A stretch of 64,000 bases of DNA from an uncultured Planctomycetales bacterium (GTDB lineage: Bacteria; Omnitrophota; Gorgyraeia; Gygaellales; Profunditerraquicolaceae). Below the pieces are notes generated by a model. The model was not told the origin of the DNA and did no database searches. It worked only from the letters and a program-made list of their open reading frames with translations. The first letter of the stretch is position 1. Each line of letters begins with the position of its first letter. The translations under genes and the position numbers were made by a program. Positions 8,084 to 47,148 of the stretch are shown here, piece after piece. The stretch is taken from the NCBI GenBank assembly GCA_964603585.1, contig CAZRVK010000009.1:7319-71318 (forward strand), in the 5' to 3' direction.

Positions 8084-8609
8084 TCTTTATCTCCTCAAGC
8101 AGTTTGGGCTTTAATTGAGAGATGATTTCCTTTAAACCATTTACGGCCGCGGTTGAAGAAATAGTCGCCCCGGCAATCGGAATAATCTTATCCATTGAAT
8201 CCAGTGTCTTTCCTGCAAATTGAGATAAGAACTCATTCTCGGTTATCCTAACCCCAAGGCCGGGGGTCTCATTTTGTGATAATACCCTGGCATTAACAAT
8301 TTCCAGTTTAAGATTTAATCCCGCCATGACCTCGATTTCCGAAGAATACCCTTTAGCCTTTGATTTCACCACAAATCCCGATATCTTATCGTCCTTATTA
8401 TAAGCCGTATAATAAACTGCCTTCTCCTTATCTAAATAAGGTTCGAACCTTGCCGCTTCAGGCAAGACTTTTCTCAATGCCGCCTGCTCATTTTCTTGGG
8501 CCTGTTTTATGATCTGCGGCTGGGTAACCGCATTGACTACCGCCAAAACCCCTCCCGACAAACAACAGATTATCCCCAGAACAACCCCATACCTGAACAT
8601 CTCATTCAT
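8073..8609 (-). CDS. rnfG: Rnf complex subunit G (FMN-binding)
   Basis: 178 aa with one TM helix, ETPGLG and the GATISS FMN-attachment motif. Confidence 0.8.
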   Translation of the reverse strand: MNEMFRYGVVLGIICCLSGGVLAVVNAVTQPQIIKQAQENEQAALRKVLPEAARFEPYLDKEKAVYYTAYNKDDKISGFVVKSKAKGYSSEIEVMAGLNLKLEIVNARVLSQNETPGLGVRITENEFLSQFAGKTLDSMDKIIPIAGATISSTAAVNGLKEIISQLKPKLLEEIKNAK

Positions 8610-8620
8610 CGCATTATCCT

Positions 8621-9892
8621 TTATTTGGGAGATTTGAGTTTAGCATACTTGATAGACTGAACAATATTCCTTTTTTGCGGGCAAAGATAGTTGCATAAAC
8701 CGCACTCCATACATTCCAAACATCCGTATGCCTTCGCCAAACCCCATTTTTCTTTTTCCGAAGCCAAAGAGATCAAACAAGGTTCCAAGCCTAAAGGGCA
8801 ATTTTCTACACACCTGGCGCATTTTAAACAGACAGGCTGCTCTCCTAAAGCTGGCTCGGATTCAGATAAACAGATTATCCCATTAGTGCTTTTTATTACC
8901 GGAGTATCCAAAGTATATTGAGCCAACCCCATCATTGGGCCACCAAAGATCACCTTTTGTGGATGCTTAATGAACGGCCCGCAAAACTCCAATAATTCCT
9001 TTGCTGTAGTGCCAATACGCACTAAAAGGTTCTCTGGTGTTTTAAGGCAATCTCCGCTTACCGTAACTACCCTTTCATACAAAGGTTTGCCCAAATAAAC
9101 TGCTTCATAAATCGCATTTATCGTCGCGACATTCTGCACTACAACCCCTAAATCAAAAGGGAGTTTGCCCGAGGGAACCTGGCACTTCAACACTTCTTGG
9201 ATCAACTGTTTCTCCCCTCCTTGAGGGTATTGCGCCTTCAACACCTTTAGCGAAAAATTATTTTTAGGGAGCCTTTTCCTGAAAGCCTCTATCGCCTCCG
9301 GTTTATTCTCCTCAATGGCAATATAAACATGCTTGACCCCAGTGCATTTTACCACTAAATCTATCCCGGCAAATATCTCTTGCGTTCTTTCAATCATCAA
9401 CCGGTCATCTGAAGTTAAATAAGGCTCGCATTCTGCGCCATTGACAATCAAAACTTCAACCGGCTTTGGAGGATCGAGCTTTATATGTGTCGGGAATGCC
9501 GCCCCTCCCATTCCCACGATCCCAGATTCAAATATGATATTACGGACCTGAATTGCGGTTAATTGATCTATTGGGTCAAATCTCTCCTTAGGCATAAGCC
9601 GGTCGGCCCCGTCATTTTCGATCACAATTGCCTGGCACTTGCCTAACGAAGGATGCGGACACTCCTGGATCGCCAAAACCTTGCCGGATACTGAAGCATG
9701 GATAGGCGACCAAACATGCCCCTGGCCAACAGCAATCTTTTGCCCTAAAAACACATTATCGCCGGATTTGACCTGGGGAGTGCAGATCTTGCCTAAATGC
9801 TGGCTTAAAGGGATATAGGCTAAAGCAGGAAGAGGCGCTTTCTTTATAGGCTTATGCTCGGTTTGAGATTTATGCTCAACTAATTTAAACAT
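8621..9892 (-). CDS. rnfC: Rnf complex subunit C
   Basis: 423 aa with an NADH-binding fold and two C-terminal 4Fe-4S motifs (CLKCARCVENCP, CLECMECGLCNYLCP). Confidence 0.85.
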   Translation of the reverse strand: MFKLVEHKSQTEHKPIKKAPLPALAYIPLSQHLGKICTPQVKSGDNVFLGQKIAVGQGHVWSPIHASVSGKVLAIQECPHPSLGKCQAIVIENDGADRLMPKERFDPIDQLTAIQVRNIIFESGIVGMGGAAFPTHIKLDPPKPVEVLIVNGAECEPYLTSDDRLMIERTQEIFAGIDLVVKCTGVKHVYIAIEENKPEAIEAFRKRLPKNNFSLKVLKAQYPQGGEKQLIQEVLKCQVPSGKLPFDLGVVVQNVATINAIYEAVYLGKPLYERVVTVSGDCLKTPENLLVRIGTTAKELLEFCGPFIKHPQKVIFGGPMMGLAQYTLDTPVIKSTNGIICLSESEPALGEQPVCLKCARCVENCPLGLEPCLISLASEKEKWGLAKAYGCLECMECGLCNYLCPQKRNIVQSIKYAKLKSPK

Positions 9893-11132
9893 TTATTCTG
9901 CGGTTAAAAATGAAGTTTACGATCCCTACAACGCTGAATATACAACCCACCACTACTAAAATCGAGACCCGGGATATTCGTTCAGCAAGCATACTACTTA
10001 CAAACATAAACAATAAAAACCCCAGATGCATTACTATCTCCAGGGAACTAAAAACCTTTCCCCTCATCTCGGTATCGCTGGAATTATGAATAATGGTATT
10101 AGAAGCGATCATAATCGGAGAAACCAGGAGCCCTAACGCAGAAGAAAGCATTGCCGCGATCAAAAATGAAGGGTATCGATTCAGCGTAAGAGCAAATACC
10201 ACTATCATTATACCACTTAAGAAAAGAGAAATAAATATTATCTTGTATTGTGAAAACTTCTGGCCGAACCGCCCATAAGCCAAAGACCCCAGGAATAACC
10301 CTATCCCCAAGAACATCACCAACAGCCCAAGGTCCTTAGTAGCGGAGTGCAGGGTGTTCTGCACAAAAACGATCAACACCACATAAATCGCCCCCAAGGC
10401 CGACCATAAAATAAAGGTGATCCCGGAGGTAAAACGGATATCTTTATTATTTATAAAATACTGCACTCCCTCTTTAATCTCCTGCAAGACCGATTTTCTG
10501 ATCAGCTCGACGATCTGCTTTCCTACATTCTTAAAGCTTACGGAAGAAACGGGTTTCTTGGCGATACAAAAAATGAGTGTCGCAGAGACTAAAAAGCTTA
10601 TTCCATCAAGGATAAACCCGAACTGCGCCCCCAGCCACTGCACCAATACCCCGCTGATCCCAAACCCCAGGATCGCCGCGATCATCCCGGTAATATTAAC
10701 CAGTGAATTGGCCAAAAGAAGGTCTTTCTTATCCACCAGGTCAGGAATGATCGCCAGCTTTGCCGGAACAAAAAACCTGCCGATAGAAAATATGATAAAA
10801 ACAATAATATAAATCGGCACCAGGCTTTTAGAGTAAAAAAGGCACAGCGGAATAATTAATACGAGAATTGCCCGAAGGAAATCACAGATATACATCGTGC
10901 GCCTTCTATCCCAGCGGTCCACATACACCCCGGCGATCGGCCCGATGAGAAACACCGGAATGATCGTAAATGACAGGATTTTAGCGATCTCCATTGCCGA
11001 ACCAGGGGCCCGATGATAAACAAAAGCGATCAAAGCCATCTGGTCAAGCCGGTCACCCAATTGCGAGATGATCTGGCCGATCCAAAGCAGGAGGAAATTA
11101 CGATTCCTTAGGACTTCATGGAATTTTGCCAT
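9885..11132 (-). CDS. MFS transporter
   Basis: 415 aa with about 12 TM helices and MFS-like loops. Confidence 0.7.
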   Translation of the reverse strand: MAKFHEVLRNRNFLLLWIGQIISQLGDRLDQMALIAFVYHRAPGSAMEIAKILSFTIIPVFLIGPIAGVYVDRWDRRRTMYICDFLRAILVLIIPLCLFYSKSLVPIYIIVFIIFSIGRFFVPAKLAIIPDLVDKKDLLLANSLVNITGMIAAILGFGISGVLVQWLGAQFGFILDGISFLVSATLIFCIAKKPVSSVSFKNVGKQIVELIRKSVLQEIKEGVQYFINNKDIRFTSGITFILWSALGAIYVVLIVFVQNTLHSATKDLGLLVMFLGIGLFLGSLAYGRFGQKFSQYKIIFISLFLSGIMIVVFALTLNRYPSFLIAAMLSSALGLLVSPIMIASNTIIHNSSDTEMRGKVFSSLEIVMHLGFLLFMFVSSMLAERISRVSILVVVGCIFSVVGIVNFIFNRRINV

Positions 11133-11672: not shown

Positions 11673-11709
11673 CCCCGTATGGATTTAACTCCATGCGGGG
11701 TTTTTATTT
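11673..11709. terminator. bidirectional rho-independent terminator
   Basis: CCCCGTATGG..CCATGCGGGG stem followed by TTTTTATTT, between convergent cspA and paralog 1. Confidence 0.65.
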
Positions 11710-13348
11710 ATGGCGCGCTTCTTACGAAACGGGCGCCAAACCAGCTTGTACGCCCCGTTCCCGGATTGTCAGCCCGGTAAGAAATAAACCCGGTCGAGGT
11801 AGGGCTTTCCCAGCTGTTCCCGCGGAAACCGCGATTACCCGGAGGATCATAATAAACGCTATTATAAGCTCCCCCCGCATACCCGGGCCAATCAGTATTA
11901 TTGGCATAACCAGAAGTGGTTAAACTGCCGTCACCATGCGTGCCTTCAAAAGCCCGGTCAGTAGAATTACCGACCGTAACTGAACGTTCATAGACATTGC
12001 CGGCTAACTCCATATTACCATAATAACCTGCACCGGATTCCGCCCGGGTAGAATTTGCAGTAGCAAGAATTCCCGACCGCACAGGTCCACTGCCACCGTC
12101 GCCGCCGTCAAACCCTGTGAAACCTTCATTAGACATTATAACATTTGCCCCGGGATTAGCTATCGTCTCCGTACCATCCTCACTGCCAGAAATAGAAGTT
12201 GCTATAACAAGACTGCCCGTGCCATCTACTGTATCGCCTCGAAAAGCAGCATCTGGGCCGCGGGAGGCCTTTTCAAACTCCAGTTCGGTCATCGGCCGCA
12301 ATCCCGCCCAATCCGCATAAGCACAAAGATCCATCCAAGAGAGATAATTGCATGCCCTGTTCGGCCGGGTGGTCGCAGCATCCCCGCTTGACCAGGAAAT
12401 AGTATTACGATTAACTACGCTATCGCTGTTTTTACCGTTTACCCCGGTAAGATCACGGGCAGACTTTTGAGTAGCGGTTAAGCTGTTAAAGAAATCCACC
12501 CACTGGCCTTCAGTCACTTCATATTTCATCAAGTAAAATGCATTATACCCGGTAGGGAAATTAGCATTGTCAATACTTCCATCATTATTGGTATCCAAAC
12601 CAGACCATACCCCTGAACCGCCAATACCAATCCCTGTATTGATAAGCTGTGAATCATCTCCGAATCCGGAAGCAACACGTATATTCCTGGTTAAAGAAGT
12701 GCCGATCACTACTCCGGAATTACTTGTCCCGGAATGAAAAGCTCCTTGACTCTCACCATCCCCATCGCCATCACCAAGATAAAAACTGCCAGCCGGGATA
12801 TACACCATCTCTATTGCATAAACTTTTACGCGCGCGGAAGTGTCCGCAGATAAACCATTCTGGCCCCAGTTCCATTTTAACCCCACAAAAGCCGCGCTCA
12901 CTTGTCCGGCTCCCGCGCTATTTCTCTGAATAAACGCCCCCATCCCACGGATATTTCCGCCAACCGTACTCGTGCCAACCTTTACTTCATAAGGAGGATC
13001 ACAAGTATGATCCGAACCGGTGGTGGACAGATATGCATGATGCCAGGTACTGCCGGAGTCAGTGGAATATTTCGCGAATACCCAGACTGCATCATAATTG
13101 ACCTCATTGCGCCAGGAATTATTCCAGGAAAGTTCAAAACCTATCCTGGCAGTTTGATTAACACTATCTTGATCACTTATAAAAATCGCACCACTATCGA
13201 TGGTGAGGTTATTGGCAAAACTTTGCCCAAAAGGAAGGGAACAAAAAATCAAAGCTATCCCCATCAGAATAATATACAATTTATAAATTTGTTTTAACGC
13301 ACTCATTAAACTCATAAGTTTTGTACTTATACTCCCTTCCACGATCAT
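11708..13348 (-). CDS. secreted FGE-sulfatase (SUMF1/DUF323) C-type-lectin-fold domain protein, paralog 1
   Basis: Sec signal peptide (cleavage about SFA/NN) and an N-terminal beta-rich domain. The FGE-type domain runs from IEMVYIPAGSFYLGDG through RPMTELEFEKASRG and GNMELAGNVYE to RGNSW and GARFVRSAP at the C-terminus. It is very rich in Ser, Thr, Gly and Asn. Confidence 0.7.
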   Translation of the reverse strand: MIVEGSISTKLMSLMSALKQIYKLYIILMGIALIFCSLPFGQSFANNLTIDSGAIFISDQDSVNQTARIGFELSWNNSWRNEVNYDAVWVFAKYSTDSGSTWHHAYLSTTGSDHTCDPPYEVKVGTSTVGGNIRGMGAFIQRNSAGAGQVSAAFVGLKWNWGQNGLSADTSARVKVYAIEMVYIPAGSFYLGDGDGDGESQGAFHSGTSNSGVVIGTSLTRNIRVASGFGDDSQLINTGIGIGGSGVWSGLDTNNDGSIDNANFPTGYNAFYLMKYEVTEGQWVDFFNSLTATQKSARDLTGVNGKNSDSVVNRNTISWSSGDAATTRPNRACNYLSWMDLCAYADWAGLRPMTELEFEKASRGPDAAFRGDTVDGTGSLVIATSISGSEDGTETIANPGANVIMSNEGFTGFDGGDGGSGPVRSGILATANSTRAESGAGYYGNMELAGNVYERSVTVGNSTDRAFEGTHGDGSLTTSGYANNTDWPGYAGGAYNSVYYDPPGNRGFRGNSWESPTSTGFISYRADNPGTGRTSWFGARFVRSAP

Positions 13349-13417
13349 TTAGCAAAACCATACGGAGGAATTATCAGATCAAGAAATATGTACGGGTTAA
13401 ATCATGCAAAATCTTTA

Positions 13418-15097
13418 TTACGGATAACTTCTAACAAACCGGCCGCCCAACCACTGCGGCGAAGGAGTCACAGCTTTTCCATCCTCCGAACCAGGATAAA
13501 AACGAGTAGAAAGGCCGGTCAAATAAAAAACTCCTCCGGTCGATGTCCATAAACTCGTTTCTCCACTACCCCCGCGATCGCCTCCTGAAAGATCACTGGC
13601 AACGCCACTGCCGCTTACATACCCCGGCCAATCAGTATTCGTACCATATCCATTGGTAGTTAAACTGCCGTCTCCATGCGTGCCTTCAAAAGCCCGGTTA
13701 GTGGTGTTACCCACACTGACTGACCGCTCGTATACATTGCCGGCTAACTCCATATTCCCGTAATAACCTGCTCCGGCAACTGCCCGGGTAGAATTAGAAA
13801 CAGAAAATATTCCTGCACGCAATGGCCCAGTGCCGCCATCTCCGCCGCTGTAAACCGCAGGAGAAAAACCTCCCGCCAGCTGATAAACAGCAAACACCGC
13901 ATCACCTCCGCCGCTGACGGTTTCCGTGCCGTTCTCACTGCCGGAAATCGTCTGTGCAGAAGTTACAGCCGTCGTGCCAAAGACCGTCTGATTAGCCAAG
14001 GTACTGCTGGCTCCCCGGGAAGCTTTTTCAAATTCCAGTTCGGTCATCGGCCGCAACCCTGCCCAGTCCGCATAAGCGCAAAGGTCTGCCCAGGAAAGAT
14101 AATTGCATACCCTGTCTGAACGGGTAGTAGTGGCCGAACCCGATCCCGGCCAGGCAATGGTATTACGATAAACCGTGCTCTGGCTATTCTTGCCGTTAAT
14201 ACCGGTTATATCCCTGGCAGATTTCTGTGCGTCGGTTAAACTATTAAAGAAATCCACCCATTGCCCTTCTGTAATTTCATACTTCATCATATAAAACGGA
14301 TTATACCCCGTAGGAAAACTGGCATTATCGATCGTTCCGTCATTATTGGTGTCTAGGCCTGACCAAACGCCTGATCCACCGATACCAATACCTGAATCAG
14401 TTAATTGGGAATCATCACCTGGTGCCGTCCGCTCAACACTTATATTCCTGGTTAAAGATGTCCCGATTAACGCAGGGGTTGTAGAGCTTAAAGTACAAAA
14501 AGCCCCCGGGCTTGCCCCATCGCCAATATAGAATCCCCCTGCCGGGACATAAACCATTTCTATAGCATAAACTTTTACGCGCGCGGAAGTAGTGGCGGAT
14601 AAACCGTTCTGGCCCCAGTTCCATTTTAACCCCACGAAAGCCGCGCTCACTTGTCCGGCTCCCGCGCTATTTCTCTGAATAAACGCCCCAATCCCGCGGG
14701 TATTTCCGCCAACCGTACTCGTGCCAACCTTTACTTCATAAGGAGGATCACAAGTATGATCCGAACCGGTGGTGGACAGATATGCATGATGCCAGGTACT
14801 GCCGGAGTCAGTGGAATATTTCGCGAATACCCAGACTGCATCATAATTGACCTCATTGCGCCAGGAATTATTCCAGGAAAGTTCAAAACCTATCCTGGCA
14901 GTTTGATTAACACTATCTTGATCATCTATAATAACCGCGCCACTATCGATGGTGAGGTTATTGGCAAAACTTTGCCCCAAAGGAAGAAAGCAAAAAATCA
15001 AAGCTGTTCCACCCAGGATAAAACGCAACTTATAAATTTGTTTTAGCGCATTCATTAAACTCATAAGTTTTGTACTTATACTCCCTTCCACAATCAT
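13418..15097 (-). CDS. secreted FGE-sulfatase-domain protein, paralog 2
   Basis: The 5' part (about 400 nt) and the upstream intergenic region are nearly identical to paralog 1. The C-terminal 60-70 aa diverges, including indels. Confidence 0.7.
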   Translation of the reverse strand: MIVEGSISTKLMSLMNALKQIYKLRFILGGTALIFCFLPLGQSFANNLTIDSGAVIIDDQDSVNQTARIGFELSWNNSWRNEVNYDAVWVFAKYSTDSGSTWHHAYLSTTGSDHTCDPPYEVKVGTSTVGGNTRGIGAFIQRNSAGAGQVSAAFVGLKWNWGQNGLSATTSARVKVYAIEMVYVPAGGFYIGDGASPGAFCTLSSTTPALIGTSLTRNISVERTAPGDDSQLTDSGIGIGGSGVWSGLDTNNDGTIDNASFPTGYNPFYMMKYEITEGQWVDFFNSLTDAQKSARDITGINGKNSQSTVYRNTIAWPGSGSATTTRSDRVCNYLSWADLCAYADWAGLRPMTELEFEKASRGASSTLANQTVFGTTAVTSAQTISGSENGTETVSGGGDAVFAVYQLAGGFSPAVYSGGDGGTGPLRAGIFSVSNSTRAVAGAGYYGNMELAGNVYERSVSVGNTTNRAFEGTHGDGSLTTNGYGTNTDWPGYVSGSGVASDLSGGDRGGSGETSLWTSTGGVFYLTGLSTRFYPGSEDGKAVTPSPQWLGGRFVRSYP

Positions 15098-15166
15098 TTA
15101 GCAAAACCATACGGAGGAATTATCGAGTCAGGAAATATGTGCAGGTTTAATTATGGAAAATCTTTA

Positions 15167-16807
15167 TTAAGGATAACTTCTGACAAAACGGGCGCCATAC
15201 CAGGCTTCTTCCGGAGCATAATCACCCTCATCCGCAGAATTAATATATTTACGTGTAGAAAGCCCGCTCTGTAATCTATAATCCGGGGTTGAAGTATACA
15301 GAAGATTACTCCCACTTCCACCCCGTAATCCAGTAGTAATACTGCCCGTAACGCCACTGCCGCTTACATACCCCGGCCAATCAGTATTCGTACCATATCC
15401 ATTGGTAGTTAAACTGCCGTCTCCATGCGTGCCCTGAAAAGCCCGGTTAGTGGTGTTACCGACACTGACTGACCGCTCGTATACATTGCCGGCTAACTCC
15501 ATATTCCCGTAGTAGCCTGCTCCGGCAACTGCCCGGGTAGAATTAGAAACAGAAAATATCCCAGCGCGCAATGGCCCGATGCCTCCATCGCCGCCATAAA
15601 AAGTTACGGAATAACACCTTTCTCCGCTAATACAAGTAGCAAAAAGGGCGTTGCCTACACCACTGATAGTTTCAGTACCGTTCTCACTGCCGGAAATCGT
15701 CTGTGCAACCGTAATATCACTGCCGGAAACTGTTTGGCCAGCCGAATAAGTACTTGGACCGCGGGAAGCTTTTTCAAATTCCAGTTCGGTCATCGGCCGC
15801 AATCCTGCCCAGTCCGCATAGGCACAAAGATCCGCCCAGGAAAGATAATTGCATACCCTATCAGGACGGGTAGTAGTGGCATTGCCCGATCCCGGCCAGG
15901 CAATGGTATTACGATAAACCGTACTCTGGCTGTTCTTGCCGTTAATACCGGTTATATCCCTGACAGATTTCTGTGCGTCGGTTAAACTATTAAAAAAATC
16001 CACCCATTGCCCTTCGGTCACTTCATACTTCATCATATAGAATGGATTATACCCAGTGGGAAAACTGGCATTATCGATCGTTCCGTCATTATTGGTGTCC
16101 AAACCTGACCAAACGCCGGAACCGCCCACACCAATACCTGAAGTATCTAATTGAGAATCATCCCCTGGAGCTGCCTGTTCAACAATTATATCCCTGGTTA
16201 AAGATGTCCCGATTAACGCAGGGGTGGTAGAACCTAATTTACAAAAAGCCCCCGGGCTTGATCCATCTCCAATATAAAAACTTGCGGCCGGGATATACAC
16301 CATTTCAATAGCATAAACTTTCACGCGCGCGGAAGTAGTAGCGGATAAACCGTTCTGGCCCCAATTCCACCTTAAACCGACAAAAACACTGTTGATTGTT
16401 CCCGTTCCGGCAGCATTTCTTTGAACAAATACCCCCATCCCGCGGGTATTTCCACCAACGGTGCTTGTGCCAACCTTAACTTCGAGAGGATAATCACAAT
16501 CATGATCCGAGTTGGTAGTAGAAAGATAAGCATGATGCCAGGTGTTCCCTGAATCAGTAGAGTATTTTACGAAAACCCAGGCGGCATCATAATTGATCTC
16601 ATTACGCCAGGAATTGTCCCAGGTAATTTCAAAACCCACTCTGGCAGTTTGATTGGCTGTATCTTGTTCATCTATACTAACGTAAGAACTCTCTATTATA
16701 AGATTATTGGCAAAAGCCTGATTAGAAAGAACAACCCAGAAAATAAAGATTGCTCCAAACAAGACACACCGGTGCCTGGATCGCCATTTAGCTGTAGTCA
16801 TAAGCAA
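15167..16807 (-). CDS. secreted FGE-sulfatase-domain protein, paralog 3
   Basis: Same architecture with a different signal peptide. It has its own promoter. Confidence 0.7.
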   Translation of the reverse strand: MLMTTAKWRSRHRCVLFGAIFIFWVVLSNQAFANNLIIESSYVSIDEQDTANQTARVGFEITWDNSWRNEINYDAAWVFVKYSTDSGNTWHHAYLSTTNSDHDCDYPLEVKVGTSTVGGNTRGMGVFVQRNAAGTGTINSVFVGLRWNWGQNGLSATTSARVKVYAIEMVYIPAASFYIGDGSSPGAFCKLGSTTPALIGTSLTRDIIVEQAAPGDDSQLDTSGIGVGGSGVWSGLDTNNDGTIDNASFPTGYNPFYMMKYEVTEGQWVDFFNSLTDAQKSVRDITGINGKNSQSTVYRNTIAWPGSGNATTTRPDRVCNYLSWADLCAYADWAGLRPMTELEFEKASRGPSTYSAGQTVSGSDITVAQTISGSENGTETISGVGNALFATCISGERCYSVTFYGGDGGIGPLRAGIFSVSNSTRAVAGAGYYGNMELAGNVYERSVSVGNTTNRAFQGTHGDGSLTTNGYGTNTDWPGYVSGSGVTGSITTGLRGGSGSNLLYTSTPDYRLQSGLSTRKYINSADEGDYAPEEAWYGARFVRSYP

Positions 16808-16835: not shown

Positions 16836-16863
16836 AGTATAAACTTACCTCTTAATTTGTCAA
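16836..16863 (-). promoter_or_regulatory. sigma70-type promoter for paralog 3 (TTGACA, 16 nt spacer, TATACT)
   Basis: On the minus strand: ATTGACAAATTAAGAGGTAAGTTTATACTTATAG. Confidence 0.5.
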
Positions 16864-16880: not shown

Positions 16881-18605
16881 TTACTGCGAAAGATCCTCTA
16901 AGATCTGGGGCAAATCTCCCTGCTTAATCAATTTCTTAAAGTATAGTTTTTTGGCGATATTGGCTCTTTTTTTTACGATTCTTTCTGAACGGTCCCAAAC
17001 AGTAAACTGCCTGGGATTAGGCAGTATCACTGCCAAACGGATCGCCTCGGGCATGGTTAAATCCGATGCCGGCTTATTAAAATAAACCTGCGCAGCAGAT
17101 CCTGCCCCATAGATCCCATTCCCCCACTCCACAATATTCAGATAAAGCTCGAGAATTCGGTTTTTTGATAAGGATCTTTCCAACTTATACGCAATAATCA
17201 TCCCCCGTATTTTCCGAATGATACTTTTTGACGGGTTAAGAAATAGGTTTTTTGCCAACTGTTCGGTGATCGTTGAAGCACCTGAAGTAATTTTTTTCTC
17301 TGAAACCACCCTCCTTAACGCCCAATCAAAACTCTCCCAATCAAACCCTCTGTGATCAAAAAAATTACGATCCTCGGCAACAACCACCGCATCAACCAGG
17401 TTCTGGGATATCTGGCTTAAAGGTGTATATTGCCACTGGATAAGATATGGCTTATCCAGATTGGCTGCTTCATTATTGCGGATACGCATCAAAGCAGTCT
17501 CTGAAGGATTCCTCTCTTTCAACCAGGAAATATCCGGAGTGAAAAACCAGAACAATAATGACATAAAAACAATAACAGCAAATAAACAAGCTATCCCCAT
17601 TAACACTTTTCTTCGTAAGATTTTTAATGAATACTTTTCATCTGCACCGCTTGCGCTTGCGTTAACCCCCATAATAAAACCGCACAACAGGCAAAAAAAC
17701 ATATAAAAATTGCTCTTATAAAGTAATGCCCCCCGGTTCAACTCAATTAAAATCACGGCAAGAATCAATATACCGGCAAGTAAAGCTTGTTTTTTATTAT
17801 CCTGCGTGATCCGGATAAACCCTGAAATACCGCGTTTAAATAACGCAGATACCAGGACAATAAATCCTGATAGCCCGATCAAACCGGTTTCTATCAATAA
17901 GCTAAGGTACATATTATTCATTGCAGATTTAGACACCCATCCGCGTTTAAAAGGATAATATTGATCGAAAACATACCCGTACCTGTCCAGCCCCACCCCT
18001 ACAAAAGGATAATCTTTGAATATCTCCAAAGACATCTCCATCTGCAGGGGTCGGTACGGATAAAAAATATCCCGGTTAAACACTCCCGGGAAGAAATGAC
18101 TTATTGCTATTGCCATCAATAATACGACGGAGGAAATAATGAAGCTTTTATACCGCTTATTCGCCAAAAGATAAACCAGCACCGCAGTGATCAGTATCAA
18201 AACCATCTGCTTGCCGATAAAAGCGGCTAACCCTCCGGAGAGCAAGAAAACCTTAATGGCAAGACGTCTATCTTCATCTGAAAAGGACAAAGATTTACCG
18301 ATGTAAAAAAGAAAGAACATGTTCGTAGATAGGTCAAGGTATATGCCTAAGGCCAGGTCTTTTCTTGACACCGGAAAAAGGCAGGCGCAAAGGCCTATTA
18401 TGAATAACCACACCGGCCAATCAGACAACGTAACCAAGCCCGGCGCTTCTTTTTTGGCAGGCAATAAATAACAAAAAAAAGCAAGTAAGAATAACTTTAC
18501 CAAGAGCACATATTCTTTTTGCACTTGTAAAGGAACAAAGAAAATCAAAATAAAAAGGGAACTGATAAAAAAAAGGTTTTTAGGTATATTTATCTTTATC
18601 GGCAT
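16881..18605 (-). CDS. polytopic membrane domain (O-antigen-ligase/Wzy-like, unverified) fused to a GT51 peptidoglycan transglycosylase (MtgA-like) domain
   Basis: About 10 TM helices in the first 340 aa. The C-terminal domain carries GT51 motifs: EDRNFFDHRGFD, GASTITEQLAKN, RKIRGMIIAYKLE, and a GxG motif. Confidence 0.65.
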   Translation of the reverse strand: MPIKINIPKNLFFISSLFILIFFVPLQVQKEYVLLVKLFLLAFFCYLLPAKKEAPGLVTLSDWPVWLFIIGLCACLFPVSRKDLALGIYLDLSTNMFFLFYIGKSLSFSDEDRRLAIKVFLLSGGLAAFIGKQMVLILITAVLVYLLANKRYKSFIISSVVLLMAIAISHFFPGVFNRDIFYPYRPLQMEMSLEIFKDYPFVGVGLDRYGYVFDQYYPFKRGWVSKSAMNNMYLSLLIETGLIGLSGFIVLVSALFKRGISGFIRITQDNKKQALLAGILILAVILIELNRGALLYKSNFYMFFCLLCGFIMGVNASASGADEKYSLKILRRKVLMGIACLFAVIVFMSLLFWFFTPDISWLKERNPSETALMRIRNNEAANLDKPYLIQWQYTPLSQISQNLVDAVVVAEDRNFFDHRGFDWESFDWALRRVVSEKKITSGASTITEQLAKNLFLNPSKSIIRKIRGMIIAYKLERSLSKNRILELYLNIVEWGNGIYGAGSAAQVYFNKPASDLTMPEAIRLAVILPNPRQFTVWDRSERIVKKRANIAKKLYFKKLIKQGDLPQILEDLSQ

Positions 18606-20329
18606 TGTTTTATACTAAGCTCCAGCAACTTTATCCCCAATGTACGCTCATCGCCATTGCCGGGTTTTTTTATGATAGGCGCCTCAAAAGTGATATTATT
18701 GATCTGGTTGAACCTAATCATCCCTGCGTCAAATACCAGGGATTGCCTTTTTGAGCGATTTCCAACTGTCAAGTTGCCAATCAATCGATTATTCAGAAAA
18801 ACACTGACAACCTGGTTTACCAAGGATTCAGCGTGAATAACCAGGGCATACTCCCTGCAATCATCTTCTTTATCTTTAAGCCTCAATAAAAGCACGGATC
18901 TTTTTGCCAGGCTCCAGCGGTATCTGGCATTCGGCCATGACCAGCCCTCGACAAATATCGCCTGGCTGTAACCATCAAGCCCTATCCGTTCATTCATTTT
19001 GTATTCCCGCATTGTTTTCTTTAACTGCGGATAATAACTCTGGTAATTACCGCCCAACCTCGTGCCGCGTAAAAACTGGATATCCTGCAAATTCCAGGCC
19101 CTCTCCTGGTTATAGTTAATATCATTTGGCTCCCAGTTCCATTTCCATACCTCCCAATCAGTCGCCCCGCGGTAATGCACAAAGAAACTGAATGCCAAAA
19201 ACAGCCAAAAAATTAGTCCCGCCAACATCCGCTTTTTATTTTTCCGGCTGAATATTAAAGGGATAACCGGGATAATGAAATAAATAAAAAAAGGAATTAT
19301 ATCCGAAATATAACGCGAGCCAAAAGATGCGCCGGCACACCAATAAGGGATAAGGGAAGCCGCCAGCCAATACAGAAGCATCGTTATCAGCACAAAATAA
19401 TCCAAACGTCCAAACTTAGCGCTTTTTATTTTCAGATAAATCCCCAGAATAGAAAATAAGAGTATGGGGGAAAAAATAAATATCCCCCGGGAAGGGCTGA
19501 CCAAATGGCCAAGCAGCCTCACAAAAAAACCCGCATCGACCCCGGTTTTTCTATAAAGATAATACTTCGGCAGGATCGCTCCATATATATTCAAGTTATG
19601 GATAAAAAACAAGCCGATAATTACCGTCAGCCAAAAGAAATAATACAACGCGTATTTCCGGTAAGAGAACAAGATAAATATCGAGAAAATACCGATGACG
19701 ATAATGTTCGTTGGCCTGACTAAATAGGAAAAGGCCAGGGTGATCCCCGCAAATTGCGCTAAGTACGGTTTTTTGCGCGCTAACACAAATAGGTACAAAG
19801 TTAAAGCCAAAAACAGCATTGACGGCCCGTGCTGCCATAAGGCCCGCGTGCCGATCGACCAGGCAGAGGTACAGAAACTAAAAATAAAAGTAACCAGCAA
19901 TGCCTGGATCTTATTGATAAATTGGCTCGCCAAAAGGTAAATTAAAGCCGCGCATAAAGCAATAATGCATGATGCAATCAGGCGCTCTATCTGTTCATAA
20001 TATTCGGTAAGGTCAAGATCCCAGAAACGATTGAAGATATAAACAAATGGCACAGCAACCAGAGATACCCCAAGAGGGAATATCGTATAGAAATGTCCCC
20101 GGGAGTTTATAATAGTCCAGCCGCCGTGGGTTCGAGAAAGGATTGTGGAGTAATCGATGTATTCATCCAGGTCGGTATTGCCTTCTTTAAGGAGGCTAGT
20201 TGCGGTATGTATTGTCCAGCTGGAATCCCAGGCAGTTGTAATAGGTAATCTTGCATTAATCAATGTTACGCATATGCTGATTGCCAGGGCGATAACAAGA
20301 TTACTGGTAACAAGCCTCTTAATTGTCAT
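18596..20329 (-). CDS. GT-C fold membrane glycosyltransferase (ArnT/PMT-like, family uncertain)
   Basis: About 11 TM helices plus a C-terminal extracytoplasmic domain. The ORF track begins at TTG 20368, but an ATG at 20329 (MTIKRLVTS...) sits 6 nt after a TGGTATAAT element. This suggests a leaderless start. Confidence 0.55.
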   Translation of the reverse strand: MTIKRLVTSNLVIALAISICVTLINARLPITTAWDSSWTIHTATSLLKEGNTDLDEYIDYSTILSRTHGGWTIINSRGHFYTIFPLGVSLVAVPFVYIFNRFWDLDLTEYYEQIERLIASCIIALCAALIYLLASQFINKIQALLVTFIFSFCTSAWSIGTRALWQHGPSMLFLALTLYLFVLARKKPYLAQFAGITLAFSYLVRPTNIIVIGIFSIFILFSYRKYALYYFFWLTVIIGLFFIHNLNIYGAILPKYYLYRKTGVDAGFFVRLLGHLVSPSRGIFIFSPILLFSILGIYLKIKSAKFGRLDYFVLITMLLYWLAASLIPYWCAGASFGSRYISDIIPFFIYFIIPVIPLIFSRKNKKRMLAGLIFWLFLAFSFFVHYRGATDWEVWKWNWEPNDINYNQERAWNLQDIQFLRGTRLGGNYQSYYPQLKKTMREYKMNERIGLDGYSQAIFVEGWSWPNARYRWSLAKRSVLLLRLKDKEDDCREYALVIHAESLVNQVVSVFLNNRLIGNLTVGNRSKRQSLVFDAGMIRFNQINNITFEAPIIKKPGNGDERTLGIKLLELSIKQCR

Positions 20330-20335
20330 TTTTAG

Positions 20336-20364
20336 ATTATACCACCCTGGCTTAACCTTGATAA
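20336..20364 (-). promoter_or_regulatory. promoter with TTATCA, 17 nt spacer and extended -10 TGGTATAAT; likely leaderless mRNA
   Basis: On the minus strand TTATCAAGGTTAAGCCAGGGTGGTATAATCTAAAAATG, so the ATG lies at about +1. Confidence 0.5.
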
Positions 20365-20594
20365 GCAATTTATAGCAATAAGGGTTTAAACATCTCTAAT
20401 ACCGCTTCAAGCATAAAAAAACTGAACGGTTAAGTCCAGGCGGGGAAAATACTACCCTAAAAGTGGTTAATGGCAGTTCAACTCCCAAGGCCTTTTTTAA
20501 ATATCCGGCTGTAACAAAAAACCAACAGGCTCAAAATAAATACCCAAGAGATAATCATGAACATCCCGCCGCTAAATGTCATCTGGCCCCCCGC

Positions 20595-21806
20595 TTATAA
20601 ATAAACAACATCGTCCTTATAAAATAACGAAAGAAACAGCAGGATATAGTCACGTAAATGCCTGGTGATGAGAAAATTGTTCCGGATATGTTCCTTGCCG
20701 TTGTCTCCCAGTTTTTGGGCATACGCCGGGCTGTTTAAAAGTTGTTTTAAGCCAAAGGATGCCCCCGGGACCGAATGGCACAACAATCCGGAATATTTGT
20801 GTTTGATCTGCAGGGGGATCCCCCCTACATTAGAGGCAATCACCGGTTTTGCTTTCCATAAAGCTTCCGCCACCGTCAGACCAAACCCTTCGCGAAGGGA
20901 TTTTTGCATGATGATCGTGGAAGCCCGCTGCAGCGCATTAATTTCTATGTCATTTTGAGAAAGAAGCAAAATATGGATATCTTCGTCTTTATCGGCGCGT
21001 TCTTTTACCTCGGCAAAGACTTGAGCCCCTTCCGGGTCATCCACTGCACCCCCTCCGGCTAAAACCAGCCGGCAATCAACATATTTCTTTACTTCCGCAT
21101 ATGCCTCAATGACACCTAAAGGATCCTTTAAACGGTCAAAACGGGATATTTGCGTAATAATAGGTTTATCTTTGGGGATCTTGTATTTACGCAGTACCGC
21201 ATCAATTATTTCCTGCGGCAATTCTTTATTTTTATCACTTAAAGGGTCAATCGAAGGAGAGATCAAAAATTGCCTTATCGGTAGTTTTCTTGAAAAAGAA
21301 GGCGCAGAAAATACAGCCGAATCATATTGGACTATGAAATCCATTAAGAAATCCCAAACCTTCTTATTGGGATTGGACACATCAATATGGCAGCGCCACA
21401 GCCATTTATTGGCGCCTTTCTTCTTGACCATGGCGATCGGTTGCGGGTCATGCACAAATACAATATCCCCGTATATATTCAATTCTTTAAGATTCTCCTG
21501 GCTTGTTTCCAGAAAAATATCAAAATCCCGGGAATTAATCGCTCCCGCCTGCCCGTGAAGCAGGTTATGGAACTTCTTCGTGACCTCAAAAAACTGTTCT
21601 CCCCCTTTTATCACATCCCAGCGGGTATCAATCCCCAGCTGCTGCAGCAATGGGGTCATCCGGTTAAGGATCTCGGCAACACCCCCTCCTACGGCCGTAG
21701 AATTAATATGCTGGATAGACTTTCCTTTTAGGCGGCTTGATATAAGGCGCAGATCATCTATCACGGATTGCCCCACAAGAGGGATATACTCTTCTATGTT
21801 TATCAT
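20595..21806 (-). CDS. GT4 retaining glycosyltransferase, TreT-like (trehalose glycosyltransferring synthase) candidate
   Basis: 403 aa with N-terminal INSTAVGGGVAEIL and a C-terminal E..G....EA motif (REGFGLTVAEALWKAKPV). Size and motifs resemble TreT. It sits in an operon with otsB and otsA. Confidence 0.55.
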   Translation of the reverse strand: MINIEEYIPLVGQSVIDDLRLISSRLKGKSIQHINSTAVGGGVAEILNRMTPLLQQLGIDTRWDVIKGGEQFFEVTKKFHNLLHGQAGAINSRDFDIFLETSQENLKELNIYGDIVFVHDPQPIAMVKKKGANKWLWRCHIDVSNPNKKVWDFLMDFIVQYDSAVFSAPSFSRKLPIRQFLISPSIDPLSDKNKELPQEIIDAVLRKYKIPKDKPIITQISRFDRLKDPLGVIEAYAEVKKYVDCRLVLAGGGAVDDPEGAQVFAEVKERADKDEDIHILLLSQNDIEINALQRASTIIMQKSLREGFGLTVAEALWKAKPVIASNVGGIPLQIKHKYSGLLCHSVPGASFGLKQLLNSPAYAQKLGDNGKEHIRNNFLITRHLRDYILLFLSLFYKDDVVYL

Positions 21807-21807
21807 T

Positions 21808-22479
21808 TTAACAGGATATCCTATTCTCGACGATATTAATAATCGTTGCCCTTAAATCTTCCAATGTCCTGGTGTACGGGTCAAGCCTAGATATTTCTTC
21901 AGCAGTATCTTTATCATCCAATGAATGCTCGAACCAATTCGAAAAATCATTGGTATCATGCTCTAACCTTAAACGCGACTCAAAGATATGGAAGTAAATA
22001 GAATCCACCGTGATTCTCTTTAGGATATTAACGAATTCTTCACGATCACGCGCCTCATTTGCGGTAGGGATGATAAAACTTATCGATTTTATGAAATGAA
22101 ACTCTTCACCTTCCCTGGCGAATTTAAGCTTTGCCCACTGATTATTCTTGAGATGCTCTTCAATCGTTTCGACGATCTTGTCCCTTAAGTTCCTGATGTT
22201 GGAGAACTGTATGGTATCGATACTGGCAAGCTCCTCCCCTAACCTCTCATCGCCTATGATCTTAGTTACCCAATACGCAAAATCATTGGGCGGCTCGGGA
22301 GACAAGTATTGATGCTGTAGCAAAAACCTGTGGGTGTGATGATAGATACATGAACCGGGGACACTTTTTATCAAATCTTTCAATTGCCATAGCGTGGCGG
22401 CCCTTAACCCGGTCAGCTCGGATAAATGCAGCCGCGCATAAAATCTGAATGGCTCTTTTGACTTAGATAAAGATGGCAT
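21808..22479 (-). CDS. hypothetical protein (223 aa) in the trehalose operon
   Basis: Good coding potential. No recognisable motifs. Confidence 0.5.
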   Translation of the reverse strand: MPSLSKSKEPFRFYARLHLSELTGLRAATLWQLKDLIKSVPGSCIYHHTHRFLLQHQYLSPEPPNDFAYWVTKIIGDERLGEELASIDTIQFSNIRNLRDKIVETIEEHLKNNQWAKLKFAREGEEFHFIKSISFIIPTANEARDREEFVNILKRITVDSIYFHIFESRLRLEHDTNDFSNWFEHSLDDKDTAEEISRLDPYTRTLEDLRATIINIVENRISC

Positions 22480-22481
22480 CG

Positions 22482-23273
22482 TTATCCTATCCCCAGTATT
22501 TGTTCCATGAATTTATCCACTTCTACCGCATCATTCACAAAATAATCCGCCTCTGAAACCTTGGGAGGGCCTACAAATATTGTTAAGCCTTTGTTCTTTA
22601 ATATTCGAAAACCATCCTCGTCGGTTATATCATCCCCGAGGTAAACGGGGAAGATATCATCTTTTACGGCTGAACCTTGGGGCCTGGACAAAAACCACAA
22701 TACCGCCTTGCCTTTATCCCAGTCCACCTTAGGCCTGATTTCACAGACCTTCTTACCTTCTTTAATCTCGATCTTTTTGCGCACCATAAAAGGATCTGTA
22801 ACCTCCGAGAAAATGCGCAAAAACCTTGGCATCTCTTTTGGATCCATTAAACGATAATGCACACTAATCGCCAAGCCTTTATCCTCGATCAACACCCCCT
22901 TGATCCCTGCAAGATTATTTAATATATCCTTATAAAGGTTGCGGATAACCAACCTTAATCTCGGTGAAACCTGGCTTTCAAACTTTATTCCGGGCCCTTC
23001 TATCTCTATACCATGATTACCTACATAAACAATCTCTTTTAGTCCAATAATGTTCTTTATATCTGGCAATGCCCGCCCGCTTATTACCGCTACCTTAAAA
23101 TTATTTCTTTTAGACAATTGCCTTAGCAATTCTTTTGTCTTCCCGGAGATCTCCGCCTGCTGCGGGGTCTCTGCGATCGGGGTTAAAGTCCCATCATAGT
23201 CAAAAAAGAATAAAATATGTTTGCCGTACAACTGCCCTTTTATCTGTTCCCACTGGTCGAATAAATATTGCAT
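22482..23273 (-). CDS. otsB: trehalose-6-phosphate phosphatase (HAD superfamily)
   Basis: FFDYDGTLTPIA and GDDITDE HAD motifs. Confidence 0.8.
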   Translation of the reverse strand: MQYLFDQWEQIKGQLYGKHILFFFDYDGTLTPIAETPQQAEISGKTKELLRQLSKRNNFKVAVISGRALPDIKNIIGLKEIVYVGNHGIEIEGPGIKFESQVSPRLRLVIRNLYKDILNNLAGIKGVLIEDKGLAISVHYRLMDPKEMPRFLRIFSEVTDPFMVRKKIEIKEGKKVCEIRPKVDWDKGKAVLWFLSRPQGSAVKDDIFPVYLGDDITDEDGFRILKNKGLTIFVGPPKVSEADYFVNDAVEVDKFMEQILGIG

Positions 23274-23277
23274 CCAG

Positions 23278-25515
23278 TTATACTTTCTTTAACGCCGCAA
23301 GTTCGGTAATAATATTCCCTGCCCAGCGATAAATATTGTTCTCCATGACCACCTTCTGCATCTTCTCCATCCGCCTTGTTTTTTCCTCACCCGGCAGGTC
23401 AAGGGCTGACTTTATACTGTCGGCAAACTCTTCTATCGAATAGGGATTTACTTGAACCGCATCGGTCAACTCTCTTGCTGCCCCGGTAAACTGGCTTAAA
23501 ATCAGGGCGCCCGAGAGGTCTTTTTTGGCCGCTACGTATTCCTTGGCCACAAGGTTCATCCCGTCATGAAGCGAGCTAACGATACAAAGATCGGCCATTT
23601 TATAAAACGGCTCGATTTCATCCAGTGAAAAATGCTTTTTAAGATAAATGATCGGTTTCCAGCTATGATCGGAATATTTCCAGTTTTTCTTCTCGATTAA
23701 TTCGTCGATTTCTGCCATCAGGTCATGATAACGCTTTATATGCACGCGGCTGGGGGCAGCCAGCTGGATAAAAACAAATTTCTTCTGATACTCCGGGTAC
23801 TTTTCTAAAAACCTGTCTATCGCAAGCACCCTTTCCACGATCCCTTTTGTATAGTCGATCCGATCGACCCCCAGGCCAATGATTTTTCCTTCAAGATCAA
23901 ACTCCTTCTTAATCGTATCCACCTCTTGCATTACTGCTGGATCATTTCGGCTTTGATTTAAATGCCCATTAACACTGATCGGAAAAGCCCGCACAAAAGT
24001 TTCTTTTTCGGAACGGACAATACTGAACTTCTCCAAGTCAACTCTTGATTCAAGGAGCCTGTTAGCTGTATCCAGGAAATTATTGCAATGGTTCTGCACA
24101 TGAAAACCTATTAAATCGCACCCAAGCATCCCTTCCAGGATCTCTTTGCGATAAGGGCAAATGGAAAATGCCTCTGGGGTAGGCCAAGGTATATGCCAAA
24201 ACATGGCGATCGTAACGTCGGGACGCTTCTCCTTGATCATTTTCCCAAGCAGGGTAAAATGATAATCCTGAATGAACACAAAGGCGTGTTTGGCGGGAAG
24301 CTCATCTAAAACAGAATCCGCGAACTTCTGATTCACCTTCTTATAAATCTGCCAGTCCGAATCACGAAAGATCGGCCGGGTATGTGTATTATGGCTTAAA
24401 GGCCATAACCCCTCATTGGAAAACCCGTAATAATAACCGTCCTCTTCTTCTTTATTAAGCCATACCCTTTTTAAGATATAACGTATATCTTTAGGCGGGA
24501 CACCGAGCTTGTCCTTTGAATTGACGAATTTTTTATCCACATTCCCGGACCCGTGAGCAATCCATGTGCCGCCACAAGCACATAAAACCGGGTGAAGCGC
24601 CGTAACCACCCCGCTTGCAGGCCTGATACATCTTTCTAAACCAGTTGCCTCATCAGCTATATGCATATATGGCTCACGGTTAGAAACTACAAATAACGAA
24701 TTCTCACCCAGCTTAGCCCGGACAAGGTCTTTTAATTTTACTTCCGTCCATATTTCTTCTTTTTCTATACGCACCTGTGCTTCGTCGGAGATCGAACGCC
24801 TGGCGACCCTTAAATTCAAAGCCACCTGCTCAACCTCACTGGCAAGTTTGCCTAAATCCCCCTTTTCCCTGATAGGATGTGCTTCATCGGTTTCGCCTTT
24901 CTGAAAATATTGAAACCAATCCGTGAGCCGTTTAATAGGCAAAACAAAGATCTGCCGATGCAAAAGAATGGATATCGCAAAGATCACTACTACTAAGATT
25001 ATTAACGTCGAGCTAATACGTCTCCAGAGTTCAGTTAACCTGGCAAAAACATATGAGGTATCATGTATAACCTCGATCATTCCCAAAAGCTCGCCCTCAT
25101 CATCAAGGATAGGAAGGATATAACTGTAAATCTGGTAATCCTTAAACTGCTCCATTTCCCCTCTGGGGGATTTGCCGGTCAAAACATCTTTGATATAAGG
25201 CTTATCTTTTTCTTTCCAATCGCCGAAACGTTTAGTAAGCGCGATTATATTACCGTCTTTGTCATAAATAGCGCACCCCTGTAATCTTTCCCTGGTTTCA
25301 AACTTCTCGGTAAGATAATTTGCGTTCTTGAGATCATTGGCTAAAAGCACGTGTTTTACCGATAATTCCATGCTTTCAGCGATGCTTTTGGCTTTTCGTT
25401 TCAAGTCATCAATCAGCTTCTCTTCTTCAAAACGCACCTGAAAGAAACCAAAAAGCGTAAAAGCCGCGGAAACAATAATTAAGATCGGCAGGATAAATAA
25501 AAGGACTCTTCGCAT
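23278..25515 (-). CDS. otsA: membrane sensor-HAMP domain fused to trehalose-6-phosphate synthase
   Basis: A TM helix (residues 5-25), an extracytoplasmic domain of about 140 aa, a second TM helix and a HAMP-like segment. A full OtsA GT20 domain then runs from about residue 265 to 745, including a VNPYS motif. GAGGTGG Shine-Dalgarno. Confidence 0.8.
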   Translation of the reverse strand: MRRVLLFILPILIIVSAAFTLFGFFQVRFEEEKLIDDLKRKAKSIAESMELSVKHVLLANDLKNANYLTEKFETRERLQGCAIYDKDGNIIALTKRFGDWKEKDKPYIKDVLTGKSPRGEMEQFKDYQIYSYILPILDDEGELLGMIEVIHDTSYVFARLTELWRRISSTLIILVVVIFAISILLHRQIFVLPIKRLTDWFQYFQKGETDEAHPIREKGDLGKLASEVEQVALNLRVARRSISDEAQVRIEKEEIWTEVKLKDLVRAKLGENSLFVVSNREPYMHIADEATGLERCIRPASGVVTALHPVLCACGGTWIAHGSGNVDKKFVNSKDKLGVPPKDIRYILKRVWLNKEEEDGYYYGFSNEGLWPLSHNTHTRPIFRDSDWQIYKKVNQKFADSVLDELPAKHAFVFIQDYHFTLLGKMIKEKRPDVTIAMFWHIPWPTPEAFSICPYRKEILEGMLGCDLIGFHVQNHCNNFLDTANRLLESRVDLEKFSIVRSEKETFVRAFPISVNGHLNQSRNDPAVMQEVDTIKKEFDLEGKIIGLGVDRIDYTKGIVERVLAIDRFLEKYPEYQKKFVFIQLAAPSRVHIKRYHDLMAEIDELIEKKNWKYSDHSWKPIIYLKKHFSLDEIEPFYKMADLCIVSSLHDGMNLVAKEYVAAKKDLSGALILSQFTGAARELTDAVQVNPYSIEEFADSIKSALDLPGEEKTRRMEKMQKVVMENNIYRWAGNIITELAALKKV

Positions 25516-42832: not shown

Positions 42833-42920
42833 AAATATAGTCCCTTTGCTGTTGTTAGGGTCACCATCCTGGCCCTAGTCCCAAAACCACAACTTACCTT
42901 AAACCTTTAAACAAATTCAA

Positions 42921-46754: not shown

Positions 46755-46756
46755 AT

Positions 46757-47008: not shown

Positions 47009-47148
47009 CTCGCTCGCTCCTTTATCCGGGATTTTAGCCCAAAAAAATCCCGGCTCTACTTAATCTTGCAGTAAAGTCGGGATAGTATTATTATTTTGTA
47101 TCCCCATGGTTTCAGAGTTGCCTCCTTACCGCAGGATATAACCAGCTA

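Follow-up and report, generated by a model that had tools for sequence, protein, structure and literature searches.

The gene described here lies on the minus strand of a 64,000-nucleotide stretch (the window) of contig CAZRVK010000009.1, from an uncultured bacterium of the Omnitrophota by GTDB lineage (assembly GCA_964603585.1), and encodes one protein in which a Wzy_C/O-antigen-ligase-fold membrane domain is joined to a peptidoglycan glycosyltransferase domain of family GT51. Its reading frame of 574 amino acids (aa) is uninterrupted in the list of open reading frames (ORFs) and spans exactly 16881-18605. The features of this fusion are as follows:

16881-18605, minus strand: fusion ORF, 574 aa, from the ORF list, with both Pfam domains; identical to P0001, the same protein in NCBI/Logan
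17631-18605, minus strand: N-terminal polytopic domain, aa 1-325, from AlphaFold2 (AF2) helices, Foldseek, a profile match, stand-alone relatives and omega (the ratio of nonsynonymous to synonymous substitution rates)
17859-18248, minus strand: Pfam Wzy_C (PF04932) match, aa 120-249, 39.9 bits
18204-18221, minus strand: deletion junction, aa 129-134 (FIG/KQM), from alignments with the relative P0003 and with stand-alone relatives and from the position table
17913-18092, minus strand: large periplasmic loop, aa 172-231, holding R185, a conserved PxVGVG motif and N230 (codon 17916-17918)
17541-17609, minus strand: transmembrane (TM) helix 11, TM11, aa 333-355, an in-to-out linker, from hydropathy, AF2, TIGR02070 and a K/R-rich loop
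16947-17432, minus strand: GT51 domain (Transgly, PF00912), aa 392-553, from Pfam, NCBIfam, alignment and Foldseek
17373-17375, minus strand: E411, catalytic base of the GT51 domain, from alignment
17262-17264, minus strand: E448, giving motif 2 as STITEQ and not STITQQ, from alignment and a homolog census
17202-17204, minus strand: G468, Gly in place of the motif-3 (RKxxE) Glu, from alignment with Aquifex PBP1a and the homolog census

Pfam analysis revealed a Transgly domain at aa 392-553 (E 2.9e-53, 180.4 bits against a cut-off of 27) and a Wzy_C domain at aa 120-249 (E 4.6e-10, 39.9 bits against a gathering cut-off of 31.7). The protein also exceeded the cut-off of the NCBIfam MtgA equivalog TIGR02070 (200.3 against 182.65 bits), with an alignment beginning at aa 345. 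An AF2 model built on a mixed 63-sequence alignment (pLDDT 88.1, pTM 0.71) showed 10 TM helices, with a long loop at aa 172-231, followed by an 11th long helix at aa 326-355 and finally a globular domain. TM11 has a hydropathy peak of 2.84 and is preceded by a K/R-rich cytoplasmic loop. A tally of K and R over the short loops, based on the AF2 helix boundaries, gave 12 cytoplasmic and 5 periplasmic residues (positive-inside), and therefore places both the large Wzy_C loop and the GT51 domain in the periplasm. Foldseek matched the C-terminal half to the Aquifex peptidoglycan glycosyltransferase (3NB6/2OQO, TM-score 0.88) and to S. aureus MGT (3VMT, 0.83), both with the lysozyme-like head and jaw fold, while the top membrane-protein match of the N-terminal half was the O-antigen ligase WaaL (7TPG, probability 1.00, E 2.7e-3), followed by RodA and FtsW. 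The protein is a 10-TM Wzy_C/O-antigen-ligase-fold domain joined through a linker TM helix to a periplasmic MtgA-type GT51 domain, and TM11 is an MtgA-type signal-anchor helix reused as the linker. An earlier note, made from the sequence of this DNA, had proposed a polytopic domain of about 340 aa with 10 TM helices ahead of GT51 and had assigned that domain to the Wzy/O-antigen-ligase group; Pfam, AF2, Foldseek and the topology tally bear out the architecture, and the assignment is upheld by the Pfam score together with the WaaL profile match and the stand-alone relatives described below.

The C-terminal ~230 aa resemble MtgA in scoring above the equivalog cut-off and in their fold, motif-1 base, basic donor-site residues and motif 4, as well as in the signal-anchor helix before the GT51 domain and its periplasmic orientation. 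MtgA, however, starts at the anchor helix and has a single-anchor architecture of ~240 aa, whereas the window GT51 domain follows a 10-TM Wzy_C-fold domain and carries Gly for the motif-3 Glu and STITEQ as motif 2.

The motif-1 Glu is the key catalytic base of GT51 enzymes (PMC4632607; PMC8119973), and the second, motif-3 Glu (E290 of E. coli PBP1b) has also been termed catalytic (PMC7400108). The earlier note had counted all GT51 motifs as present; motifs 1 and 4 are intact and motif 2 reads STITEQ, but motif 3 does not stand. Window residues R464-K465-I-R-G468 align with RKIKE of Aquifex PBP1a, and the Glu that had been counted is E476 (in YKLE), eight residues past G468. In a motif census of the best 120 homologs (~114 parsable), 106 carried the motif-3 Glu, and Gly occurred only in the three fusions known, which are the window protein (P0001), P0002 and P0003. 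Motif 1 (E411-D412-RNFFDHRG, that is, EDRNFFDHRG) is invariant across the three, as are K452, K460, R464, K465, motif 4 (KNRILELYLN) and R547, down to 47% identity. All three fusions have Glu (E448) for the first Gln of motif 2 (GASTITEQ), a variant shared by a few ordinary penicillin-binding proteins (PBPs) that have the motif-3 Glu. STITEQ as compensation for the motif-3 Glu loss was considered and found unsupported: the census sample gives no compensation signal because STITEQ also occurs in PBPs that keep this Glu. An E290Q replacement in PBP1b reportedly leaves only residual activity. In a study of S. aureus MGT with a lipid II analog, K140 and R148, and not the second Glu (E156), are said to have been proposed as leaving-group stabilisers; from our own alignment, we take these two residues to correspond to K452 and K460 of the window fusion.

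The stand-alone relatives of the N-terminal domain are O-antigen-ligase-family proteins of 362-434 aa, with E-values down to 1e-81. A profile of three N-domain sequences found no match among solved structures, and WaaL was reached only by a broader profile of 18 clade sequences, which matched 7TPG at E 4.5e-7; this match makes it possible to map the WaaL residues. In WaaL, Arg191 and Arg265 bind the phosphates of undecaprenyl pyrophosphate (Und-PP) and His313 activates the acceptor, whereas polymerase families and SEDS proteins have Asp or Glu at the His313 column (PMC10920833), and the same role is described for RodA Asp262 (PMC10449877). The residues found at these columns are as follows:

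Stand-alone clade: Arg191 column, R (TFSRG motif); Arg265 column, R; His313 column, D
P0003: Arg191 column, R198 (one-column shift); Arg265 column, R261; His313 column, D310
Window protein: Arg191 column, K132; Arg265 column, R185; His313 column, N230
P0002: Arg191 column, G; Arg265 column, H; His313 column, N

At the His313 column, Asp was found in P0003 and 13 stand-alone relatives, and His only in the distant P0134 and P0135. Judged from the aligned residues, the stand-alone clade and P0003, which has a Wzy_C score of 59.1 bits, carry what reads as a polymerase-like signature (R/R/D).

The window protein and P0002 have 69 residues fewer than P0003 at the junction (~100 alignment columns relative to the stand-alone proteins). 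The missing segment comprises a conserved periplasmic loop ('RPMSTQ..'), two TM helices and the TFSRG motif equivalent to Arg191, and a further 11-residue stretch of the large loop is missing from both proteins. The window N-domain has 10 TM helices before the linker compared with 12 in the WaaL-type fold and in P0003; the long loop is retained, and the topology is preserved because an even number of helices was removed. In the comparison between the window and a second locus, L005, omega was 0.156 for aa 1-325 and 0.136 for the GT51 domain, values that are rough because synonymous divergence (dS ~1.1) is near saturation, although both are still far below 1. The omega of 0.156 indicates that the N-domain is retained for some purpose, and a decaying N-terminal pseudo-domain was rejected, this value being close to that of the GT51 domain.

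Compared with WaaL (GT121, PF04932, 7TPG), the membrane half shares a Wzy_C match above threshold, the best membrane fold match, and a large loop with PxxGxG and the Arg265-equivalent R185, but it has 10 and not 12 TM helices, has lost the Arg191 motif (K132), carries Asn at the His313 position (Asp in the wider clade) and is fused to GT51. The likeness to Wzy polymerases and the SEDS proteins RodA and FtsW (GT-C1 clan) lies in the Asp at the His313 column of the stand-alone relatives and P0003, whereas the window protein and P0002 have Asn there; RodA and FtsW come next after WaaL as fold matches. No family-specific model for Wzy-type polymerases or SEDS matched the window protein, and similarity to SEDS is undetectable at the sequence level.

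A GT51-domain search gave 514 significant matches in 5.8 billion protein clusters. Only three of them, all metagenomic, contained both domains: P0001, identical to the window protein; P0002, with 70% identity and 574 aa; and P0003, with 47% identity and 654 aa. When 1.84 billion representatives were searched exhaustively by HMMER for the N-terminal domain, 4619 relatives emerged, and among the best 150 of these a GT51 extension was present in only two fusion clusters. No N-terminal-domain relatives were found in GTDB representative genomes at the sensitivity used, and our literature search found no paper describing a Wzy_C + GT51 architecture. The fusion is real, extremely rare and apparently undescribed; the earlier note had likewise not recognised the architecture. 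That note had also named, as the case against itself, an unassignable anchor in an architecture common among MtgA homologs, whereas we found an assigned Wzy_C family and a very rare architecture. The fused GT51 domains are 57-71% identical to one another but share only 40-50% identity with all remaining GT51 domains, the stand-alone copy in the genome of P0003 among them; because the three form one clade, a single old fusion event is indicated. The fusion is confined to uncultivated Omnitrophota: the best-annotated N-domain relative comes from this phylum, and the window glycogen phosphorylase is 72-77% identical to its counterparts in metagenome-assembled genomes of Candidatus Omnitrophota. 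It is a new combination of two known kinds of enzyme and not a new kind of system.

Other domain combinations were observed around both halves. The remaining long proteins among the best 150 N-domain relatives were tandem Wzy_C duplications or a fusion of Wzy_C to a phosphodiesterase; P0141, P0171, P0258 and P0264, from the same Wzy_C subclade, comprise one 1022-aa protein of Wzy_C with a type I phosphodiesterase/nucleotide pyrophosphatase and three tandem Wzy_C proteins of ~800 aa. The nearest GT51 relatives outside the fusion clade (P0004-P0020, ~750 aa) consist of a TM anchor, GT51, PF12913 and an NlpC/P60 peptidase, a domain set that places a peptidoglycan synthase and a hydrolase within one chain.

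Among known systems, the nearest precedent is WadA of Brucella and Mesorhizobium (GT121+GT25), in which a Wzy_C/GT121 membrane module is likewise fused to a second, globular glycosyltransferase of the same pathway (PMC10920833), the GT25 domain adding the last core sugar (PMC10920833). WadA differs from the window fusion in its partner, which is GT25 and not a periplasmic Und-PP-dependent GT51, and the lineages are unrelated. GT25 is a family using nucleotide-sugar donors. Class A PBPs and SEDS-bPBP pairs also couple a GT51 or GT-C polymerase physically to a second envelope-assembly module, but the partner there is a transpeptidase, whereas the window fusion has no transpeptidase domain and its partner is a GT-C-fold membrane module.

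The genes adjoining the fusion are as follows:

18596-20368, minus strand: upstream coupled partner, 590 aa, a GT-C-A-fold glycosyltransferase with a C-terminal beta-sandwich domain like a carbohydrate-binding module (CBM), from AF2 and Foldseek
11708-16807, minus strand: three tandem paralogous secreted FGE-sulfatase-domain proteins of 546, 559 and 546 aa, from Pfam FGE-sulfatase

The start of the fusion overlaps the stop of the upstream 590-aa gene by 10 nucleotides (nt), and the fusion gene is translationally coupled to this gene, which encodes an ArnT/STT3-fold GT-C protein. The AF2 model of the partner (pLDDT 85.5) matched STT3, ArnT, EmbB, AftB and ALG9 in Foldseek (probability 1.00 each), its beta-sandwich resembled CBM6/35 and the carbohydrate-binding domain of BcsB, and NCBIfam LA_3751/2 gave a weak match. 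The partner family (P0284-P0403) had 904 matches, mostly unannotated GT-C-A-fold membrane proteins of ~420-440 aa; some end in a PA14 or CBM-like domain, Pfam PMT_2 matches are very few, and LA_3751/2 is again matched weakly.

Downstream of the fusion, the FGE-domain genes are spaced by 69-73 nt and are possibly in the same operon. Their products are 62-76% mutually identical and have an AxA signal peptide, Gly/Ser/Thr-rich stretches and a partial FGE-sulfatase domain, with weak PDB matches to FGE and CalU17. The order of GT-C gene, fusion and FGE-domain gene is kept in L005 at 66-76% identity (66% for the GT-C partner). Promoter and terminator scans for the operon limits gave counts not above chance. 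The 73-nt gap between the fusion gene and the first FGE-domain gene contains a near-consensus sigma-70-like site (16836-16863, minus strand; 11/12, TTGACA-16-TATACT), and the regional count of such sites is not above chance.

No peptidoglycan genes were found elsewhere in the 64-kb window, whose remainder encodes an Rnf complex, trehalose and glycogen metabolism, and [FeFe]-hydrogenase with maturases. The Rnf complex lies at 5079-9892. The trehalose cluster (20595-25515, minus strand) comprises a TreT-type synthase, a DUF5752 protein, a trehalose-phosphatase and a 745-aa GT20 OtsA with an N-terminal Cache-like sensor domain. The region 41585-56724 (minus strand) encodes HydF, two radical-SAM maturases (presumably HydE/G), two [FeFe]-hydrogenase large subunits and NuoF-like subunits, the last including a 1053-aa fusion of NuoF with a GltD-like pyridine-nucleotide oxidoreductase.

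P0003 lies within a ~40-kb glycan island, which also holds P0285, the ortholog of the window GT-C partner (51% identity). The immediate neighbours of P0003 were considered for this role and rejected: they showed no BLAST similarity, and the true ortholog is 17 kb away. These neighbours are two paralogous membrane proteins of ~390 aa, one on each side, (41% identical, weak PMT_2) at 8730-9953 (plus strand) and 12010-13161 (minus strand) of locus L001, followed by a DUF2079 membrane protein and an adjoining radical-SAM/SPASM gene block. Also ~17 kb from P0003, within the region 2767-7802 of locus L089 (contig k141_2207103), is a stand-alone 224-aa GT51 protein with RKIKE intact and the motif-1 His replaced by Asn. 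Its gene adjoins Wzt and a likely Wzm gene (no Pfam match), and a single small pilin-like (N_methyl) gene separates it from that of a 1187-aa Wzy_C protein fused to TPR, beta-propeller and S9-peptidase-like domains. The start codon of P0121, the closest stand-alone Wzy_C relative, overlaps the stop codon of the PMT_2 GT-C gene directly before it, and other stand-alone Wzy_C relatives are encoded in glycan clusters of Omnitrophota, among GT2/GT4, radical-SAM and Wzt genes. In three loci, no stand-alone Wzy_C gene was found next to a GT51 gene, and a neighbourhood with unfused GT51 and Wzy_C was seen only in the island of P0003.

We tentatively favour, at somewhat less than even confidence, the reading that the window fusion is an atypical MtgA-type polymerase with a polytopic anchor, that its Wzy-like half serves as a conserved non-catalytic platform, and that it works with the coupled GT-C/CBM enzyme. 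This reading takes domain identities, topology, residue losses, rarity, selection and synteny as observed and proposes from them the active half, the substrate and the partnership. A 12-TM, Asp-type Wzy/WaaL-fold GT-C enzyme would have been joined once, in Omnitrophota, to a monofunctional GT51 whose anchor helix became the linker. The fused GT51 would then have lost its motif-3 Glu, presumably early because the loss is common to all three fusions. Later, in the lineage of the window, the membrane half would have lost two helices, a loop, and its Und-PP-binding and acceptor-activating residues. The reduced GT-C half most likely no longer catalyses transfer and may be kept as a membrane platform that holds GT51 at the periplasmic face; it may still dock an undecaprenyl-linked substrate or partners. 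Catalysis, if any, would come from GT51, with E411 deprotonating the acceptor 4-OH and K452, K460, R464 and K465 holding the donor pyrophosphate, at a donor site that would be impaired or altered by the loss of the motif-3 Glu. The fusion and its translationally coupled partner, the ArnT/STT3-fold GT-C enzyme, may act jointly on a periplasmic glycan, and the CBM-like domain of the partner suggests that it decorates such a glycan.

Several observations weigh against this reading. With the residue corresponding to E290 of PBP1b missing, the GT51 half may be inactive too. Constraint on the N-domain is as strong as that on the GT51 domain, although a passive anchor would seem to need less, and the near-saturated dS leaves the underlying omega values rough. 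From the alignment, K132 and R185 are still present in the window protein and might bind pyrophosphate.

In an unlikely alternative, both halves are without catalytic activity and the protein acts as a scaffold or regulator that binds lipid II or an Und-PP-glycan, serving the neighbouring GT-C enzyme or cell-wall synthases elsewhere. Loss of canonical residues in both halves together with purifying selection on both is a pattern typical of binding modules after the loss of catalysis. However, the invariance of E411-D412, the basic donor-site residues, motif 4 and R547 down to 47% identity exceeds what binding only would lead one to expect, and the score above the MtgA equivalog cut-off also argues against this alternative.

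The favoured reading leaves room for a GT51 half that polymerises a non-peptidoglycan, Und-PP-linked repeat in a dedicated envelope pathway with the ArnT-like GT-C/CBM enzyme and the FGE proteins. The two readings are compatible, and we consider this one rather unlikely. The altered donor site (motif 3 E to G, motif 2 Q to E) is clade-specific, relatives of both halves and the GT-C ortholog occur in large Omnitrophota glycan islands with GT2/GT4, radical-SAM, Wzm/Wzt and stand-alone GT51 genes, and the lack of peptidoglycan genes in the window points in the same direction. Against this, the GT51 domain passes the MtgA equivalog threshold, the local cluster in the window lacks the cytoplasmic glycosyltransferases, flippase and initiating transferase needed for a dedicated pathway, and the closest stand-alone MtgA-like relative is in an ordinary context. 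To our knowledge, moreover, all characterised GT51 enzymes (CAZy family GT51) are peptidoglycan polymerases.

That the protein is a true bifunctional enzyme appears doubtful. Its GT51 half would polymerise an Und-PP-linked disaccharide, and its Wzy/WaaL-like half would polymerise or ligate an Und-PP-glycan, possibly the GT51 product, onto an acceptor. Both active regions are periplasmic, both enzyme classes use Und-PP-linked donors, and the N-domain is under purifying selection; WadA provides a precedent as a bimodular O-antigen ligase, P0003 has the full R/R/D triad and 12 TM helices, and in its island one small gene separates an unfused GT51 gene from a Wzy_C gene. The window protein, however, has Asn, which cannot serve as a base, at the acceptor-activating position and has lost the Arg191 motif along with two TM helices; in its sister P0002 the Arg265 equivalent has gone as well, and the GT51 domain has no motif-3 Glu. 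Because the membrane half has lost key residues and GT51 lacks one hallmark Glu, the protein is probably not a two-in-one enzyme in this lineage. The bifunctional reading is more likely to fit P0003 than the window protein; in the same way, the coupling of polymerisation or ligation with strand synthesis that the earlier note had envisaged is unsupported for the window protein, in which both halves have lost key residues, and is plausible only for the more ancestral P0003.

A more specific version, which we regard as improbable, is that P0003 is a two-step periplasmic machine, in which GT51 makes an Und-PP-linked strand and the Wzy/WaaL module transfers this strand en bloc to an acceptor or joins blocks, the window protein being a simplified descendant. 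Under such a model the motif-3 Glu of GT51 would be dispensable because the handling of the donor pyrophosphate would be shared, and the machine would represent a previously unknown route to terminate, attach or re-route peptidoglycan-like strands. Finally, a joining of two neighbouring genes by frameshift or chimeric assembly, raised only because the source is a metagenome-assembled genome and with no supporting evidence found, was rejected as having a negligible chance of being correct, since independent assemblies from different samples carry the same continuous ORF (identical in Logan SRR15237810, at 70% in SRR31558123 and at 47% in ENA, JGI and Logan). Conservation of the linker TM helix and selection along the entire length also speak against it.

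The practical weight of these findings is limited by the small number of sequences (three, all from uncultivated bacteria), by the reduced appearance of the window copy, and by activity having been read from sequence and models. Interest centres on P0003, the relative that has stayed intact, and on the second GT51 Glu, lost specifically in the fusion clade. This clade is a natural experiment on the debated residue, which is lost in every fused copy while the other active-site residues are invariant. GT51 enzymes and Wzy/WaaL/SEDS-fold GT-C enzymes are the two known classes that use Und-PP-glycans at the outer face of the cytoplasmic membrane and have so far been studied separately. Their natural covalent fusion argues that both classes can act on the same or consecutive lipid-linked intermediates, an argument strengthened by the unfused GT51-Wzy_C neighbourhood in the same Omnitrophota glycan island as P0003.

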